DNA from: Planctomycetota bacterium
GTDB taxonomy: Bacteria > Planctomycetota > Phycisphaerae > Sedimentisphaerales > Anaerobacaceae
Direction of reading: 5' to 3'
Length of the DNA stretch: 59,785 nt
Assembly (NCBI GenBank): GCA_023139715.1
Contig: JAGLNB010000002.1
Span: 1-59,785, forward strand
The translations under genes and the position numbers were made by a program. Each line of letters opens with the position of its first letter. The stretch's first letter is position 1. Shown in pieces: positions 3,258 to 59,785 of this stretch. The notes beneath the pieces were generated by a model that saw only the letters and a list, made by a program, of their open reading frames with translations, searched no databases and was not told the origin of the DNA.

Positions 3258-4888
3258 GCTGGCACCTCATTACTCCAAAATGTAGCCGGCATGACTTGAA
3301 TGTGTTTACCACACACATCACAAATCCCGTTCTTCATAGGCCTCTTACCTGATGCCATGCCATATTCTTCTCCACATTCACAAAACACATAACTATAATC
3401 ATCATCATCCCTTGGTGTTTCCAATGGCGAATCTGAATCAATCAATCCAACGGTGCTAATACTACCCAGTGCCAGCCTAGTAATCGCAATTGCCACAGCA
3501 TCAAGCATATCGTCATGTTCTGCAAACGGGAACTGAGCCCATTGCTGCCTGAATTCTGGAATTCCTAGTATTTCGGTTTTGCGTAAAAGTACACTACCAT
3601 TCTCAAAATGTGGCGCAATTGACAGCATCTTGGTAATCTTATCTTTGACTGTGAGCACACCAACAGCAGGAATCCATGTGCTGTCTGCTATATGCTGCGC
3701 CATGGCTGCCTGATATACATTATTTTCAATGAGTACTTCAACGGCCCGCATCCCTGCACCAGCCCACTCTTCATATGCGGTACAAATCTTATCGTATGCT
3801 GTCGGGAAATCCCATTTACCATGCCGTATTTCTATTAGGTGAACTTTTCGCTTATTTGCTTGATATCCCACCAGCGCAATACAAGTTTCATCGGCGTGTT
3901 CTTTCTCGCTTATTGCAAGATCAACACCTATGTAATAAGTTAAATCTTCAGGCAGGTCATTCCAATTATAATATTGTAACCAATCAACATTCAAATACTG
4001 CCCTTTCATACCGGACGGATCGTTCTGCTTTTCCCGGTCAAACATAATCGAACCGGCCTGCTGTCTGTCAATGAGTAGCTTCTTGATATCCCACACTTCT
4101 GGCCAGAGTACTACTGAATCACCTGTTACTTGGACATCTGATATTACTTCATTACCATCTGAATCAGTCTCAAATACATACTCGTAAGATTCAGGCCAAT
4201 CAATAATAGCCCGATCTATAGACCGGTGCCAAAGTGCATTATCTATGAGTTGCTGGTATAGGTCAGCATAATGCTTCCTAGTACCAATCACAAACATCTG
4301 TGTGGTGGGTTCTACCAGCTGGCCGATGGTCCCATAAAACCAGTTATCCATAGATTCCATGCGGCCTTCAGTCTTGGTATTCTCATCATCAAGCATGTCG
4401 TCTACTATGATTATATCAAAGTGCCCGCCGGTGATTGCACCTAGTGCGCCGACAGCTTCAACCGTGGGATCCTTGAGTTTACGCCCGACGTCATCCCTCT
4501 TGCACCAGATGGCACCACCATCACTTTTGCCCTCTAATAGTTCGCCGAAATCTTGTTTAATAAGTGGATTATTTCGCAGTTCTGCCCTGATTGTACCTAA
4601 TAGTTTGTTTGCCTGGCCTGATGTTTTGCTGACCATTAATACTCTAACATTCGGGATATTGCATATTGCCCATACAGGGAATAAATGGCAGAAAATTGTT
4701 GTTTTCCCATGATCTCTAGGACTAAGTTGCAAATGCCGATCACGACTGGTGTAATTTAACCACCGTATTTGATGAGTTGGCATGTTCAACCCTAGATAAT
4801 GTTTCCCAAAAAAAGCTTTACTGTATCTTGCAATGGCTTTAGGTGGTAGGTTCGCTAACTTCTTTTTGTCCGTGTCACTCAATAGCAT
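3254..4888 (-). CDS. terL: terminase large subunit
   Basis: Walker A SPRDHGKTT, Walker B DIIIVDDMLDDE, nuclease half GVDLAISEKEHADETCI; extra C-terminal CxC..CxxC tail. Confidence 0.9.
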   Translation of the reverse strand: MLLSDTDKKKLANLPPKAIARYSKAFFGKHYLGLNMPTHQIRWLNYTSRDRHLQLSPRDHGKTTIFCHLFPVWAICNIPNVRVLMVSKTSGQANKLLGTIRAELRNNPLIKQDFGELLEGKSDGGAIWCKRDDVGRKLKDPTVEAVGALGAITGGHFDIIIVDDMLDDENTKTEGRMESMDNWFYGTIGQLVEPTTQMFVIGTRKHYADLYQQLIDNALWHRSIDRAIIDWPESYEYVFETDSDGNEVISDVQVTGDSVVLWPEVWDIKKLLIDRQQAGSIMFDREKQNDPSGMKGQYLNVDWLQYYNWNDLPEDLTYYIGVDLAISEKEHADETCIALVGYQANKRKVHLIEIRHGKWDFPTAYDKICTAYEEWAGAGMRAVEVLIENNVYQAAMAQHIADSTWIPAVGVLTVKDKITKMLSIAPHFENGSVLLRKTEILGIPEFRQQWAQFPFAEHDDMLDAVAIAITRLALGSISTVGLIDSDSPLETPRDDDDYSYVFCECGEEYGMASGKRPMKNGICDVCGKHIQVMPATFWSNEVPA

Positions 4889-17775: not shown

Positions 17776-18660
17776 TTATATATTTAATATTTGTTTGTAG
17801 TGAGTACGACACCACTGTCTCACGAGCCCACCATACTTCTCTACAGCCCTTGCCCTACTACCAACAAACGATACCTGTATGCGGTTCTCCAATGAGTTTA
17901 TTGTCTCGATCTTGGATGCCTCGGATGCGCCTCTTCGTACAAAGTACTGGACTTTACCATACTTGTTTATCCTTTTTACCAGTGTTTCACGCAATACCCC
18001 ATCGATAATCACAGCAGCACCACCAGGATTAAAATTAATATGGACCTGAACATCATCAGTATTTACATATATTATTTCTCCTTCAAATGTTACTTGATGC
18101 TGTGCGGCTTTTATTTTATAGAATCGTTTCAGATATTGCAATATGTTTTTTATAATGGTATACTGTGCAGAACCGTGTGTGAATACAAAGATCTCCGGGA
18201 CATATTCCAAGAACTCCTCGTATGTACATTCTGCGATTAGATGGAACCGGTTGAACCTGGGATCGGCTTCATATCGGACAATCTCACGATATAGCCTGCT
18301 ACGTTGTTCCCTGTTCATCAAAGTTCCATATATGTCTTCCAGGGTCTTACGCTCTACACACAACCCACAGAACATATCATAGTCGTCAAGATACGCCACA
18401 TAGTCGCCAGTTTGACGCACCATACAGTCTTTTTTGAGAGACATTGGTATGATGTTATACCCCAATTCACTGGCAAGCCAGGGGGTTTTTTCGTTTTTGG
18501 CAACTTGAATAGTGATGTTAAGTTTCTTACTCCAAGCCGTAAGCTGCCTGGATAACTTATCCTCAATCTTCTCATAGTCTGGATGCTGTGGTGGAAGTCG
18601 CTGGAGTTCTACATGTAGCTGCAGGATTGAAGCTTCATAATCTGATAGCGTCTTTGTCAA
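17776..18660 (-). CDS. ERCC4-type (XPF/Mus81/Hef-like) nuclease
   Basis: Signature TGDYVAYLDD..x..VERKTLEDIYGTL (GDxn-ERKx3D); TTG start overlaps the upstream TGA (TTGA). Confidence 0.7.
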   Translation of the reverse strand: MTKTLSDYEASILQLHVELQRLPPQHPDYEKIEDKLSRQLTAWSKKLNITIQVAKNEKTPWLASELGYNIIPMSLKKDCMVRQTGDYVAYLDDYDMFCGLCVERKTLEDIYGTLMNREQRSRLYREIVRYEADPRFNRFHLIAECTYEEFLEYVPEIFVFTHGSAQYTIIKNILQYLKRFYKIKAAQHQVTFEGEIIYVNTDDVQVHINFNPGGAAVIIDGVLRETLVKRINKYGKVQYFVRRGASEASKIETINSLENRIQVSFVGSRARAVEKYGGLVRQWCRTHYKQILNI

Positions 18661-19550
18661 TTTAAAACCCCCAGTTTATCCAATATTTGTTGTTCCCATT
18701 CACTCCGATTAAAATTTGTTTTGCTGTGACACGAGTTACACAATGGCACAAACTCACATTTAGAATCATCACATAAACAATTCTTATCATAATTTACATG
18801 ATGAATACATAACTTTTTACCATTATCAACCTCGGATTTATCACATAAAAAACATTTTCTATCAAACATATCTCTGATAGATTCTTTGAACGTGTTGTTG
18901 AATTTTATACAATATGGCTCGAATGATAACCCACCTTTCCATGATGGGTGATGCTTACCTTTTTGTTTTGTAGCCATACATTCCCTACTACAAAATGATT
19001 CGTTTATATCTTTTATTCTATTTTTTGTTCTAAATAATTCCTTACCACAATATCCACAACACACTTTGATTTTGTTTTTACTGTTGGCAACACTTACTTT
19101 ATTTTTAGCTTCGTCGGTATGTTTTCTACCTGTAAATGGTCCTATTTGTCCTTTATGTGCTTCACATTGTTTTTGTCTCCATTCATCTGTAACGTATTTC
19201 CCTCCATAATTTGGATTATTTTTTCCACGAACATCAGCATGATTTTTACTTATTTTTATTTTAGTTTCATCACTGTGATTTTTACCATACATATAATTAT
19301 TTTTGCCTGAATTAGCAGCACTTATTTTATCTCTGACATTACGGGGGACTTTTTTTCCATACATATAATGTTGTTTACCTTTTGTAGTTACACGGTTAAG
19401 ATTCATTCTTCGAAGAACATCATCCGAAGTTAATTTAGAATCTGGATATTTATTGATATATTCAGCTGTTGTTATTCTATGTATTCGCAAATGTAAAAAA
19501 TTGATTTTCCCAAATTTCTTTCCACAAATAGCACAAGTTACTTTATCCAT
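18657..19550 (-). CDS. HNH homing endonuclease with NUMOD3-like repeats
   Basis: Repeated GKxHSDETKxKIS-type modules; C-terminal CIHHVNYDK..CNSCHSK; N-terminal CAICGKKF..HLRIH finger; start at the ATG after GGAG. Confidence 0.8.
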   Translation of the reverse strand: MDKVTCAICGKKFGKINFLHLRIHRITTAEYINKYPDSKLTSDDVLRRMNLNRVTTKGKQHYMYGKKVPRNVRDKISAANSGKNNYMYGKNHSDETKIKISKNHADVRGKNNPNYGGKYVTDEWRQKQCEAHKGQIGPFTGRKHTDEAKNKVSVANSKNKIKVCCGYCGKELFRTKNRIKDINESFCSRECMATKQKGKHHPSWKGGLSFEPYCIKFNNTFKESIRDMFDRKCFLCDKSEVDNGKKLCIHHVNYDKNCLCDDSKCEFVPLCNSCHSKTNFNRSEWEQQILDKLGVLN

Positions 19551-19718
19551 TATCATAATCTCCTGAACGATACTTATATTAGTCTGTGAGATTATATAGT
19601 TACCTATGGCGGGATATATCACTATCTCCTGAACAAAGATAGCTTTTTTTCCCGCCGTTTTAATCATAAATATACTCCATTGTGGCAGCATGGTAATCTA
19701 CGCTTTTTGTATTTGCCA

Positions 19719-20742: not shown

Positions 20743-21059
20743 TCTTGCATCACTTCCAACACAGCATTAGCACAACTCTTCGCACATTTCATATCTTTCG
20801 AGAAGTATGCATAATTCAGTTCATCGAACATATCTGTGATATAGTACCCGGCTTCAACCTCTCTTATTATTGGCTCAACTTGTACATAATCCCCGACAGC
20901 TGAAATGAACAGTTCTACTTTAAGTTCATGCCCGTGATTACGCAGTACGTTTCTGATTGCTAATACACAATCTAATTTATTGTAAATGCAGTTGTTTAAC
21001 CAGCCAACCTGTTCTTTTACTCCTTTGATGTCATCACGACTGTACGTATGTATTGTCAT
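20739..21059 (-). CDS. hypothetical protein
   Basis: ATGA overlap with the upstream gene. Confidence 0.7.
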   Translation of the reverse strand: MTIHTYSRDDIKGVKEQVGWLNNCIYNKLDCVLAIRNVLRNHGHELKVELFISAVGDYVQVEPIIREVEAGYYITDMFDELNYAYFSKDMKCAKSCANAVLEVMQE

Positions 21060-22360
21060 GTATGCTCCTCCTTCACAGTATCAGGATAAAACTCATACTC
21101 TGCATCCTGGATGTCCTCTTTAGTCTCTGGCGCAGTGATGGCAATCCTTGCCTGTGCCTCAAGTTCAACGATCTTACTCTGCATCCCGGCTTTCCTGGTC
21201 ATCAGTTCGATTGTCTGTTTGTGCAGGTCGTCCATGTTACCAGGGTATTCTAAGTTTACTACATAGATTGTTTGTGCTGTTGGACTTCCTACTGGATTCA
21301 CAGATTGCGGTGCTATAGTCATCTTCAACGGTATGTCTGCCAGGACTCCACCTGTAAGGCTCTGTATGAAGAATAGGGATGAAAGTATGGATCTGATACT
21401 ATTGACCGATGTAGTCCTGAATTTATATACTCCTCCGAGACGGGGTGCGTCCTTCAATACTACAGACAGAATACCATTTGGTTTGCATTTTTTAGTTGCA
21501 AAGACAGGACATGTATCAGGATTACATACTAGTTCAGTTCCATCTGCTTGTACTGCCTTTTCACCATCACCGCTACACATACATTTTCCACCTTTGTATT
21601 GATTGAACCTGGTAAAAAAGTTCAGTGTTGGATTGTTATATAACAGTGATACATCCAACTCCTTACAGTCATCGCCTATAAGGCCCATAACTGCTGCGTC
21701 TGGTATAAAGTCGCCATTGTCATCTTTGTGTAGGGTCACTACCTCAAAATGATTGAACTTCTCGGGCGGGCGGTATTCATTACCTGCTCTTGATTTCTTC
21801 ATTTCGCCCTTGCGACCAATCTTGATCTTACCAATCTCTTTAAGTCCTGGTACAAATGTCTTGATCATTGTTCCTTGTGGGATAAATGGTGCTGGTGGTG
21901 CTGTTGAATGTACGATCTCAGCGGGTGCTTGTTTTGTCACCATTTCAGCCGTTACTTTAGCAGGATCATCATCTGAGAATGATTCTGTGTCTTTTATATA
22001 TTGAGCCGTTTCTTGGTTTATCGATTTCTCTGGCTGCACTGGTGTGGCCCCCTGCATGGTAGTAGTCACAATGATGTCTGCATCTGTCCTCGAAGGCATC
22101 CTGCCATCCTCTGCCTCGGTGATCATCTTACCAACTTTTTCCAATGTCTTGTGTTCGTCATCTTCGGCAATCTTCTTCCCATCGGCGTTGAAATATGCCT
22201 TGATCGGAGATTCGTTCAAGTTAACTACGATAGTTTTCATGCCGTGTTCCTGGGTATACATTCCTTGGAATTGTTCCTTTTCTGTGAATCCTGCGATTTC
22301 AAGCGCCTGTACTATTAATTCTTTCTTCTGTTCTGGTGTTGCTGTCATATCATCGTTCAT
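21056..22360 (-). CDS. conserved phage-type protein with Cys cluster (replication or recombination candidate)
   Basis: Start at MNDDM (SD CAGGAGGA); acidic N-terminal half; C-terminal KIGRKG..CMCSGDG..CNPDTCP..CKPNG..GGVYKFRTTS pattern; function not assigned. Confidence 0.6.
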   Translation of the reverse strand: MNDDMTATPEQKKELIVQALEIAGFTEKEQFQGMYTQEHGMKTIVVNLNESPIKAYFNADGKKIAEDDEHKTLEKVGKMITEAEDGRMPSRTDADIIVTTTMQGATPVQPEKSINQETAQYIKDTESFSDDDPAKVTAEMVTKQAPAEIVHSTAPPAPFIPQGTMIKTFVPGLKEIGKIKIGRKGEMKKSRAGNEYRPPEKFNHFEVVTLHKDDNGDFIPDAAVMGLIGDDCKELDVSLLYNNPTLNFFTRFNQYKGGKCMCSGDGEKAVQADGTELVCNPDTCPVFATKKCKPNGILSVVLKDAPRLGGVYKFRTTSVNSIRSILSSLFFIQSLTGGVLADIPLKMTIAPQSVNPVGSPTAQTIYVVNLEYPGNMDDLHKQTIELMTRKAGMQSKIVELEAQARIAITAPETKEDIQDAEYEFYPDTVKEEHT

Positions 22361-22362
22361 TA

Positions 22363-22551
22363 TTATTCCTCCTGTTTGTCTGGGCACAATGCTTTTCTCA
22401 TTGTTTTTATTATAAAATCAATTGCAGCTTCAGATAGATTATATTGTTGTATATCAACATATTCGCCTTTTTTCATATCATCAAACAAATGAGTGAGTGT
22501 TTCAATATCCTGCATATCCAAGATGTTGTTTTTGGTGGTCATATTTATCAT
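22363..22551 (-). CDS. hypothetical protein
   Basis: ATGA overlap with the upstream gene. Confidence 0.6.
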   Translation of the reverse strand: MINMTTKNNILDMQDIETLTHLFDDMKKGEYVDIQQYNLSEAAIDFIIKTMRKALCPDKQEE

Positions 22552-23850: not shown

Positions 23851-23883
23851 GTAAAAATATGTTGGTGGTCTGCTGGCACCACC
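23851..23883 (-). terminator. hairpin plus T-run downstream of the tRNA-like gene
   Basis: GGTGGT..ACCACC stem (23864-23883) followed by ATATTTTTAC on the minus strand. Confidence 0.5.
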
Positions 23884-23949
23884 GGGCCATTGCTTCTCCT
23901 AGTGTTCGCCGACGCCACTATACAACTTTCAACGGTGTATAGTCCGCAA

Positions 23950-24027
23950 TGCAGCCTGCCAGATTTGAACTGGCGATCTCCAAACCCCTTGAGTTTGGCG
24001 AGATAGTCCATGCTTCTCCAAGGCTAC
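23950..24027 (-). tRNA. tRNA-like gene with an expanded anticodon arm (no encoded CCA)
   Basis: GTAGCCT/AGGCTGC acceptor, GAGA/TCTC D stem with A14 and GG, GCCAG-TTCAAAT-CTGGC T arm, 5-nt variable loop. The anticodon arm CCAAA-CUCAAGGGG-UUUGG is 2 nt too long. Confidence 0.7.
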
Positions 24028-24039
24028 ATGATGTATTTA

Positions 24040-24320
24040 ATAGGAGGTTGCGACCCATGCTAGGAGAACACGGATCGCTGTTTTTTCTGTGGGAGGTGAT
24101 CTGCCGAAGAACGCTTTTGAAGCGCTAGGAATCAGGGAAAATGTAAACCTGCTTCGGCACGTTGGTTGTCTGTGATTGGAGGTTGCTGCGGGATGTCTTG
24201 AAACATCGGCGGGATAGTGATATTATTTGGGGGAGTGGATAGGATTCTCCCGCCGTCCCGCAGCTCGTTGATATTCGTATGATGGTTGTGGCAGGGTACG
24301 TGGCTGACGAACCCCGCCGG
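24040..24320. ncRNA. GC-rich structured non-coding island (candidate ncRNA or cis element)
   Basis: No credible ORF. Nested stems 24186-24193/24256-24263 and 24207-24214/24248-24255; stem 24103-24109/24152-24158; three GGAGGT motifs. Confidence 0.4.
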
Positions 24321-24325
24321 TTTGT

Positions 24326-24487
24326 TTAGTGTAATGCCTTTGGTTCTAGCTGATCCTTGAGCTCCATGAGTGCATTGATTACAACATCTGTCTTGTTGTA
24401 AAATCTTCTTGTTTCTGCCTGACGCTCTATGAACTCGTCCAATTCTAAAGGTATTCTATTGTGTATTACTGTTGTTTCTTTTGTCAT
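24326..24487 (-). CDS. ribbon-helix-helix transcription factor
   Basis: MTKETTVIHNRIPLELDEFIERQAETRRFYNKTDVVINALMEL fits the RHH layout; the track ORF extends to a TTG at 24565 (ATG also at 24553). Confidence 0.6.
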   Translation of the reverse strand: MTKETTVIHNRIPLELDEFIERQAETRRFYNKTDVVINALMELKDQLEPKALH

Positions 24488-36469: not shown

Positions 36470-36823
36470 ATGGGATTAGACGTACATGTTGGAGAATATG
36501 AATCTAAAGAATATGTGAGTGAACACCTAGGTGCATATTCTGGTTTTGCGATATGGAGAAAAACAATATCAAATGCAGCAGGTTTTGATTTAGATGAAAT
36601 GGATGGCTTTGATGGAACAAAACCATGGACATCAGAACCATTTCAATTAATTTTAAATCATTCTGATTGTGATGGTGGATATTCAGTTGAACAGGTCCCT
36701 GAATTGTTACAGGAATTATATGACATAAAAGAATTGAATGTTGATGATTATGACCAATCAGATAAATTAATTAGACTATGTAAAGCTGCATTGTTATTGA
36801 ATAAACCTATTGAATTTGCATGA
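36470..36823 (+). CDS. hypothetical protein
   Basis: ATG after AAGGAG; the track ORF starts at 36434. Confidence 0.65.
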   Translation: MGLDVHVGEYESKEYVSEHLGAYSGFAIWRKTISNAAGFDLDEMDGFDGTKPWTSEPFQLILNHSDCDGGYSVEQVPELLQELYDIKELNVDDYDQSDKLIRLCKAALLLNKPIEFA

Positions 36824-59734: not shown

Positions 59735-59760
59735 ATGTTTATGCTCCTTGGTAGGATATC

Positions 59761-59785
59761 AGCCCGCACTTACGGGAATGAATGT
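59761..59785. repeat. 25-bp direct terminal repeat (right copy)
   Basis: Exact copy of bases 1-25. Confidence 0.9.

Follow-up and report, generated by a model that had tools for sequence, protein, structure and literature searches.

The question raised by this locus is whether a transfer RNA (tRNA) gene whose anticodon arm is two nucleotides too long still yields a decoding tRNA, and which codon such a tRNA would read. The gene occupies 24027..23950 on the minus strand of contig JAGLNB010000002.1, and the whole stretch of 59,785 nt that was analysed is referred to as the window. The original prediction had described a tRNA-like gene with canonical acceptor, D, variable and T arms and an anticodon arm of either 5 bp with a 9-nt loop or 6 bp with a 7-nt loop without U33. 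Its coordinates and arm sequences were exact, with the gene on the minus strand, and both descriptions of the anticodon arm hold. Comparison with relatives indicates that the gene is genuine and selectively maintained, and the two extra nucleotides are most economically explained as one more C-G pair, the sixth of the stem, which leaves a loop of normal size (7 nt) with the predicted anticodon AAG. The role that we favour, with somewhat less than even confidence, is that of an accessory viral tRNA that would be processed by RNase P and RNase Z, CCA-tailed, charged and used to read CUU through AAG.

ARAGORN, a check proposed in the original prediction, called exactly one tRNA in the window (23949..24028, minus strand). 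In its drawing, CCAAAC/GUUUGG form an anticodon stem of 6 bp, the loop is UCAAGGG (7 nt) with AAG as anticodon, and U(-1):A73 may add an eighth pair to the acceptor. When a 111-nt query was searched with the covariance model RF00005, the score was 42.3 bits against a gathering score of 29 (E = 2.3e-8, still about 1e-5 when rescaled to the whole window), so that the poor score named beforehand as an argument against the gene was not seen. The match spanned 24027..23950 end to end (model positions 1-71), and the alignment placed a 2-nt insertion in the anticodon loop. RF00005 reported nothing on the whole window with default or gathering filters, nor on 601 nt with an E-value threshold, because of the speed filters and not because of a poor score. 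Unusual tRNAs can be lost to Rfam scan filters in this way, this 42-bit tRNA having been recovered only with the 111-nt query.

Read from 24027 to 23950, the 78-nt minus-strand DNA is GTAGCCT TG GAGA AGCATGGACTA TCTC G in its 5' part and CCAAA-CTCAAGGGG-TTTGG AGATC GCCAG TTCAAAT CTGGC AGGCTGC A in its 3' part, and CCA is not encoded. The 7-bp acceptor stem is formed by GUAGCCU (24021..24027) and AGGCUGC (23951-23957), and an eighth pair is possible between the U at 24028 and the discriminator A73 (23950). A 2-nt connector (UG) leads to the D arm (GAGA/UCUC, 24000..24018), in which the 11-nt loop AGCAUGGACUA holds A14, G15, G18, G19 and A21. AGAUC makes up the 5-nt variable loop, and the T arm GCCAG-UUCAAAU-CUGGC (23958..23974) has a 5-bp stem with G53-C61 and a UUCNANU loop with U54, U55, C56 and A58. 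All nucleotides that support the L shape were kept (U8, A14, G15 with C48, G18G19, A21, G26, G53-C61, U54-U55-C56 and A58), indicating a class-I cloverleaf that conforms to the tRNA family in everything except its anticodon arm. This arm (23980..23998) can be read as CCAAAC-UCAAGGG-GUUUGG or as CCAAA-CUCAAGGGG-UUUGG; a canonical tRNA has 17 nt here with U33, and the arm measured 19 nt in all three orthologues that were compared.

These orthologues came from a collection of related loci gathered through the neighbouring Gp3-like gene (21056-22387, Pfam PF18897) in IMG/VR, metagenomes, GTDB genomes, ENA and Logan. The same tRNA with the 19-nt arm was recovered from two independent assemblies, L032 (Logan SRR11306566; tRNA at 3399-3475, Gp3 protein 85% identical to that of the window) and L034 (ENA ERZ23499054; tRNA at 4501-4578, Gp3 protein 80% identical), excluding the 2-nt assembly error that had been suggested as a trivial cause of the long arm. 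In L032 the anticodon loop was changed from UC to AU and the D loop was 1 nt shorter; in L034 A3 was replaced by G3, turning A3-U70 into G3:U70, and a G in the variable loop by A. All changes among the three tRNAs were thus confined to loops or preserved pairing, and the minimum-free-energy (MFE) fold was the cloverleaf in each of them. Exact and degenerate DNA searches of IMG/VR gave no genuine match to the tRNA (one chance hit, L044, lay inside a coding region), blastn searches with the tRNA yielded short chance matches only among phage and plasmid records, and a search with the surrounding 4 kb yielded nothing from the phage collection. A metagenome scan with the Gp3-like protein returned 23 loci, all too short or too distant and none with any tRNA.

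The pairing was evaluated in an alignment of the window tRNA, its two orthologues and a paralogous CAU tRNA of the relative L037. In this alignment 97.7% of the cells were paired (100% for acceptor pairs 1-7) and 8 pairs showed compensatory double changes, compared with 28-43% paired cells for slid control structures. Further, four of the five T-stem pairs covaried against the L037 paralogue. The tRNAs of L032 and L034 differed from the window copy at 3/78 and 2/78 positions, a divergence of 2.6-3.8%. By contrast, 25/147 and 15/145 positions (10-17%) differed in the adjoining conserved non-coding block, and the nucleotide divergence of the Gp3-like neighbour gene in the same genomes was 20-23%. 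The tRNA was therefore 4-8 times less diverged than its flanking sequence across the three genomes.

The likely arrangement of the two extra nucleotides was most readily seen in L032, whose arm CCAAAC-AUAAGGG-GUUUGG was folded by RNAfold into 6 bp with a 7-nt loop. When the C:G pair is closed, this loop reads A32-U33-A34-A35-G36-G37-G38, the textbook order of U33, anticodon and purine 37. The 6-bp stem is favoured because the L032 loop becomes canonical once this invariant pair is closed, and the 9-nt loop is less likely. The pair (C35:G43 in alignment columns) can form in all three orthologues and is formed in the MFE fold of L032; being invariant, it shows no covariation. In the window and in L034 the loop reads U32-C33-AAG-G37-G38, which together with the ARAGORN call and the L032 comparison places the predicted anticodon AAG (for CUU) at 23988..23990, between C33 and G37. 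AAG and G37 were invariant in the three orthologues while positions 32-33 varied, and a G37 after G36 would match what is normally found in CUN-reading tRNAs. The alternative reading of CAA after a U, which had been raised in the original prediction, fits the window but is contradicted by the L032 loop C-AUAAGGG-G. A 2-nt 'intron' as the source of the extra length was considered and rejected as implausible.

Relatives did not always carry this tRNA. Depending on the relative, the same slot was occupied by a Thr(UGU), Thr(CGU), Pro(UGG), Ala(UGC) or Met/Ile2(CAU) tRNA or by the window tRNA, and close relatives with the same genes lacked the latter. The Thr(UGU) tRNAs of L003 (129-200), L033 and L041 (3698-3771) had the loop CCUGUAA and the Thr(CGU) tRNA of L036 (3657-3730) had CCCGUAA, each with C32 and C33. 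The Pro-type (UGG) tRNA of L033 combined G3:U70 with a 1-nt connector, a variable loop of 3 nt and a 6-bp anticodon stem, on which the loop was CCUGGAA with A37. C32-C33 was thus shared by five of the relatives' tRNAs, the two in L033 lying at 4270-4342 and 4428-4501. The Ala-type (UGC) tRNA of L042 (278-350) had a C3.C70 mismatch in place of G3:U70, and the CAU tRNA of L037 had a body paralogous to that of the window tRNA.

Similar bodies were also combined with anticodon arms of very different length. The tRNAs of L001 (7738-7819, 51 bits in Rfam) and L039 (250-332) had anticodon arms 9-13 nt too long on bodies that resembled those of L042 and L033, respectively. The arm measured 19 nt in the window versus 17 in L037, 19 in L033 versus 30 in L039, and 17 in L042 versus 26 in L001. 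Body identity within such pairs was 72-83%, or 60% in the case of the window and L037 (3' part), and arm identity was about 40-50%. The L001 and L039 tRNAs may contain very short archaeal introns or may be non-decoding variants; no clear bulge-helix-bulge motif was found in their 9-13-nt expansions, and the intron calls of ARAGORN looked arbitrary. Four relatives held tRNA-like elements (L001 7857-8005, L032 3526-3659, L039 42-154 and L042 435-684) whose 7-bp acceptor was UGAUGCG/CGCAUCA and whose T stem had 6 bp; they also had a D arm with GG, and a variable central insert of 50-190 nt replaced the anticodon arm. These elements may be intron-containing tRNAs or a different RNA. A similar tRNA-like element with an insert of about 65 nt was observed in L031.

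Every tRNA cassette was followed, 0-2 nt past the discriminator, by one of two hairpins, whichever tRNA preceded it. The type-1 trailer hairpin of the window (ACUAUACA-CCGUUGAAAGU-UGUAUAGU, 23917..23943, minus strand) also stood behind different tRNAs in L001, L032 and L033, and a U:G wobble in L032 and L033 assigned it to the strand of the tRNA. The type-2 hairpin UCGGCUCUCAUGAAGCCGA was found in L003, L031, L034, L039, L041 and L042. Homology between the window and L034 stopped 2 nt past the discriminator, where type 1 was swapped for type 2, showing that the tRNAs behave as exchangeable cassettes. The trailer hairpins could be processing signals or the joints of cassette exchange. Downstream, a closing block (23889-23836) contained a TATA-like box for the next gene, preceded by the hairpin GGUGGU..ACCACC with five consecutive U (23853..23883, minus strand); this block was conserved across relatives, and its hairpin and U-run are likely to mark the end of the tRNA transcript.

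The genome around the gene is that of an archaeal virus, as the original prediction had guessed. The first 25 nt of the window recurred at its end (1-25 and 59760-59785), indicating a closed circular genome of about 59.76 kb, and the window is probably a complete viral genome; the virus is tailed, archaeal and of the Methanoperedens type. Its proteins included a portal, a large terminase, a Mu-F-like protein, an SU10-type capsid protein, a tail tube, a primase, a HerA-like ATPase and DNA methylases. A related provirus in Candidatus Methanoperedens nitroreducens had the methylase, the Gp3-like protein and the terminase in common with it. This provirus, the MCM helicases encoded by relatives and one homologue labelled as coming from a Methanosarcinaceae metagenome-assembled genome together indicate that the host is archaeal. 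In a scan of about 56 open reading frames (ORFs) of the window, none was recognised as encoding an integrase, a synthetase, or an enzyme that modifies or repairs tRNA.

As an accessory tRNA of this virus, the RNA would be excised by RNase P and RNase Z from a longer minus-strand transcript, with the hairpin just past the discriminator and the downstream U-run marking the trailer and the transcript end, and CCA would be added post-transcriptionally. Archaeal leucyl-tRNA synthetase (LeuRS) relies on the long variable arm of tRNA-Leu. The window tRNA has A73, as expected of an archaeal tRNA-Leu, but a variable loop of only 5 nt; because the long arm is lacking, charging would fall to some synthetase that is probably not LeuRS. 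The anticodon AAG would pair with CUU, which is the commonest CUN codon of the virus and makes up 21% of its Leu codons; an unmodified A34 strongly prefers U-ending codons (PMC11066159). The sister anticodons UGU, UGG, UGC and CAU match the most used codons of the virus (ACA 43%, CCA 51%, GCA 53% and AUA 39%), the classic signature of viral tRNAs that supplement codon usage. Host enzymes that edit or attack cellular tRNAs may also act poorly on this one because of C33, A34 and the sixth pair. Evasion of host anticodon nucleases, proposed early on for such altered loops, is plausible by analogy with bacterial phages (PMC10264068, PMC11464382, PMC11555353), and the fact that C33 turns up again in further tRNAs of these viruses lends it some colour. 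Within the virus group the slot is a tRNA hot spot, and the gene is one of its exchangeable accessory cassettes.

Several observations weigh against a decoding role. The near identity of the orthologues could stem from recent cassette exchange instead of selection, and the invariance of the sixth C:G pair in all three denies it the proof of covariation. The arm of the window and of L034 can also fold as 8 bp with an AAG triloop, in which the anticodon would be hidden. The sixth pair is uncompensated: in the known tRNAs with a 6-bp stem, the variable loop is shortened to 3 nt and the connector to one nucleotide, whereas the window tRNA has 5 nt and 2 nt at these places. C33 stands in the window and in L034 where U33 is near-universal, U33 being present in L032. 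A34 tRNA genes have been reported absent from archaea (PMC11066159), which makes AAG in an archaeal virus itself unusual, and with a Leu-box anticodon on a class-I body standard leucylation is unlikely. In the virus group, like bodies occur with normal and expanded arms, C33 recurs, and identity determinants are out of line with anticodons. The L034 orthologue combines G3:U70 and A73, the alanine determinant, with the AAG anticodon; this combination, the mismatches between body and anticodon in the sister tRNAs and the grossly expanded arms would equally fit a non-decoding role.

The main and serious rival is a tRNA mimic that never enters the ribosome, an explanation that we consider possible though distinctly doubtful. 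In such an RNA the top half (acceptor, T and D arms) would matter and the anticodon arm would be a free variable module; with the same degree of doubt, the top half might recruit RNase P, RNase Z or the CCA-adding enzyme, or soak up a host defence nuclease or modification enzyme. The very different arms on the same bodies, the tRNA-like elements of four relatives built around 50-190-nt inserts and the 8-bp fold with its triloop would all be expected of a mimic. So would the broken identity rules, namely AAG on a class-I body and a G3:U70 pair that is found on the 'Leu' (L034) and 'Pro' (L033) cassettes and not on the 'Ala' cassette (L042). However, a mimic gives no reason for AAG and G37 to stay invariant while positions 32-33 vary, nor for the textbook order of U33, anticodon and purine 37 in L032; a decoy need not have sister anticodons that track the preferred codons of the virus, the large inserts of relatives may simply be archaeal introns, and no nuclease or partner protein was identified. 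The RNA could instead be a mis-sense tRNA, reading the Leu codon CUU but carrying a different amino acid, such as Ala in the variant with G3:U70. Its class-I body, which lacks the long variable arm on which archaeal LeuRS depends, and the G3:U70 and A73 of L034 fit this idea, and there are precedents in yeast mitochondrial tRNA-Thr1 (PMC3113583) and the allo-tRNAs (PMC7609411). It is nevertheless unlikely: the window copy has A3-U70, efficient mis-decoding would damage the virus's own proteins, 21% of whose leucines use CUU, and no cognate synthetase gene was recognised among the scanned ORFs. A broader view, in which Methanoperedens-type viruses maintain a hot spot of exchangeable tRNA-like molecules that are not ordinary decoders and the window tRNA mis-decodes CUU or serves as a decoy or scaffold, is rather improbable in our judgement. 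Its supports may be the conserved top half with a freely varying arm (+2 nt here, +9-13 nt and inserts of 50-190 nt elsewhere) and the identity rules that may be broken by A34, C33, G3:U70 on non-Ala anticodons and an Ala anticodon without G3:U70.

The original prediction had taken the expanded loop as a hallmark of frameshift suppression or quadruplet decoding. A quadruplet or quintuplet decoder with a true 9-nt loop would account for the 2 nt of excess length and for their assignment to the loop by the covariance model, and formation of the closing C:G pair lacks proof. This explanation is very doubtful, as natural suppressors have 8-nt loops (PMC4238358), the two extra nucleotides here are a C and a G placed to pair, and the L032 loop fits 7 nt with U33. 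No ORF pair in the genome was bridged by a +1 or +2 shift at a loop-complementary motif (CTTG, CTTGA, CCTTG, CCCTT, CCTT, CCCT or TTGA) in a crude scan that demanded at least 80 codons on each side; its sole hit, TTGA at 36797, was an ordinary gene overlap. Moreover, relatives with the same gene set carry other tRNAs, so that no core gene can depend on the window tRNA. A decaying pseudogene left over from cassette exchange is quite unlikely: the locus is clearly a zone of frequent recombination and several departures occur together (6-bp stem, C33 and A34), but all stems are intact, all tertiary nucleotides are kept, the changes preserve pairing, and divergence in the three genomes is far below that of the flanks. 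A recombination site had also been suggested, and it could take the form of an attachment site (attP) or other target that copies a host tRNA gene. Archaeal integrative elements often target tRNA genes, a Methanoperedens element being located at tRNA-Asp (PMC13444090), and different tRNAs occupy the slot in different relatives. By contrast, the window holds a full, internally matched cloverleaf and not a 3' fragment, and no second copy, half-copy or repeat of any tRNA part was found elsewhere in the genome. The 24-nt T-arm/acceptor string GCCAGTTCAAATCTGGCAGGCTGC had no exact 24-mer match when 185,579 species genomes, that of Ca. M. nitroreducens among them, were searched. With no integrase among the scanned ORFs either, an attachment site is highly improbable.

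The window tRNA was compared with several known systems. Natural tRNAs with a 6-bp anticodon stem that are used in translation are tRNA-Pyl, tRNA-Sec and mitochondrial tRNA-Ser(UCN) (PMC7609411). In its favoured fold the window tRNA would share the 6-bp stem on a 7-nt loop and the L shape with tRNA-Pyl and mammalian mitochondrial tRNA-Ser(UCN) (PMC7609411), and compared with the latter it also keeps G18G19 and the T-loop consensus. The L033 Pro-type cassette goes further, having the 1-nt connector, 6-bp stem and 3-nt variable loop of mitochondrial tRNA-Ser(UCN). The window tRNA differs from both in its two connector nucleotides, G26, 11-nt D loop and 5-nt variable loop, in an anticodon that is AAG and not CUA or UGA, and in A73 and C33. 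Allo-tRNAs have 6-bp anticodon stems and non-matching anticodons (Mukai et al. 2017, reviewed in PMC7609411). Like these and tRNA-Sec-like molecules, the window tRNA has a probable 6-bp anticodon stem, a possible 8-bp acceptor through U-1:A73, an anticodon that does not match its body and variants with G3:U70. However, those tRNAs are bacterial, with a long variable arm and acceptor/T domains of 8/4, 9/3 or 13 bp, whereas the window tRNA comes from an archaeal virus and has a 5-nt variable loop and a 5-bp T stem; no long variable arm is present, and an 8/5 organization is reached only if U(-1):A73 is counted.

The +1 suppressors SufB2 and SufJ and engineered quadruplet decoders likewise have an arm of more than 17 nt on an otherwise normal tRNA (PMC4238358; bioRxiv 10.1101/2020.12.31.424971). 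There, one extra nucleotide makes an 8-nt loop; here, the extra nucleotides number two and can form a pair, the scan turned up no frameshift target, and close relatives do without the tRNA. In yeast mitochondria, tRNA-Thr1(UAG) reads CUN with an enlarged anticodon loop and is derived from tRNA-His (PMC3113583). It shares with the window tRNA a class-I structure, an enlarged arm and a CUN-box anticodon on a body that is not tRNA-Leu. It differs in its 8-nt loop on a 5-bp stem, and its charging by a dedicated threonyl-tRNA synthetase and the CUN reassignment are proven, whereas charging of the window tRNA is a prediction. Phage tRNAs that escape nucleases are also encoded by viruses and have non-cellular anticodon loops (PMC10264068; PMC11464382; PMC11555353), and C33 recurs in the sister cassettes. 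In contrast to the window tRNA, they are bacterial, their nucleases are known (VapC, PARIS AriB and retron effectors) and the host tRNAs can be compared; in the window tRNA the stem itself is lengthened.

The slot lies in a 536-nt gene-free stretch, with the tRNA on the same strand as the neighbour genes, and this stretch had a fixed frame across about a dozen relatives. Its upstream edge was marked in all relatives by the motif CCUCCUAUUAAAU (24034..24046, minus strand; consensus CCUCCUAUWAAAU), after which one or two tRNA cassettes followed. The motif was considered as the tRNA's own archaeal TATA box and rejected, since it ends 7 nt before the tRNA and is thus too close. Just upstream of the slot, a conserved structured RNA (block B, 24170-24045, minus strand) is predicted to form a Y shape followed by a hairpin: the outer stem GUGCCGAAG/CUUCGGCA encloses two hairpins, and single-stranded AUCACCUCCCACAG, which resembles the 3' end of 16S ribosomal RNA, precedes another hairpin. 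Block B was common to 10 relatives, had 6 pairs with compensatory changes and was placed on the minus strand by its G:U pairs; Rfam searches with it gave no significant family. An optional long two-tier hairpin, CUGCGGGA-CGGCGGGA ... UCCCGCCG ... UCCCGCAG (24264-24185, minus strand), was present in the window, L004 and L031 and absent from L001. The first element of the frame, the block A hairpin GGCGGGG-UUCGUCAGCCACGUA-CCCUGCC (24318-24290, minus strand), came directly after a small ribbon-helix-helix-like ORF (24326-24487) and its stop codon. This hairpin was 95-98% identical across relatives, with one change from G:U to G-C, and its conservation exceeded that of the coding genes. A bacterial reading of these flanks (a sigma-70 promoter, intrinsic terminators, a plus-strand mini-ORF at 24058 and a plus-strand terminator at 24044-24085) was dropped because the host is archaeal, the frame of the mini-ORF is not conserved and G:U pairs put the hairpins on the minus strand.

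Elsewhere in the window, a NUMOD3-motif protein, probably a homing endonuclease, adjoined an ERCC4-like nuclease ORF (18657-19691 and 17776-18660, minus strand). A NUMOD3 gene was found at a different place in L032, which suggests mobile endonuclease genes in this virus group.

A functional window tRNA would be an example from nature of a tRNA that works in an archaeal system despite an uncompensated sixth pair, C33 and an A34 of the unmodified type. It would then bear on the anticodon-arm geometry that the ribosome and the elongation factor tolerate, and it would be a candidate scaffold for orthogonal tRNAs. Should it merely be an accessory CUU decoder, it would be a modest curiosity. At the wider locus a conserved structured RNA stands beside tRNA cassettes that are exchangeable and often aberrant, and the stakes are higher if any part of it proves functional. 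A hot spot of tRNA cassettes, many of them non-canonical, in viruses of methane-oxidising archaea offers a concrete place to seek tRNA-centred conflict between virus and host in archaea; if a decoy or scaffold role were true, it would mean that such conflict, so far documented only in bacteria, takes place in archaea as well.

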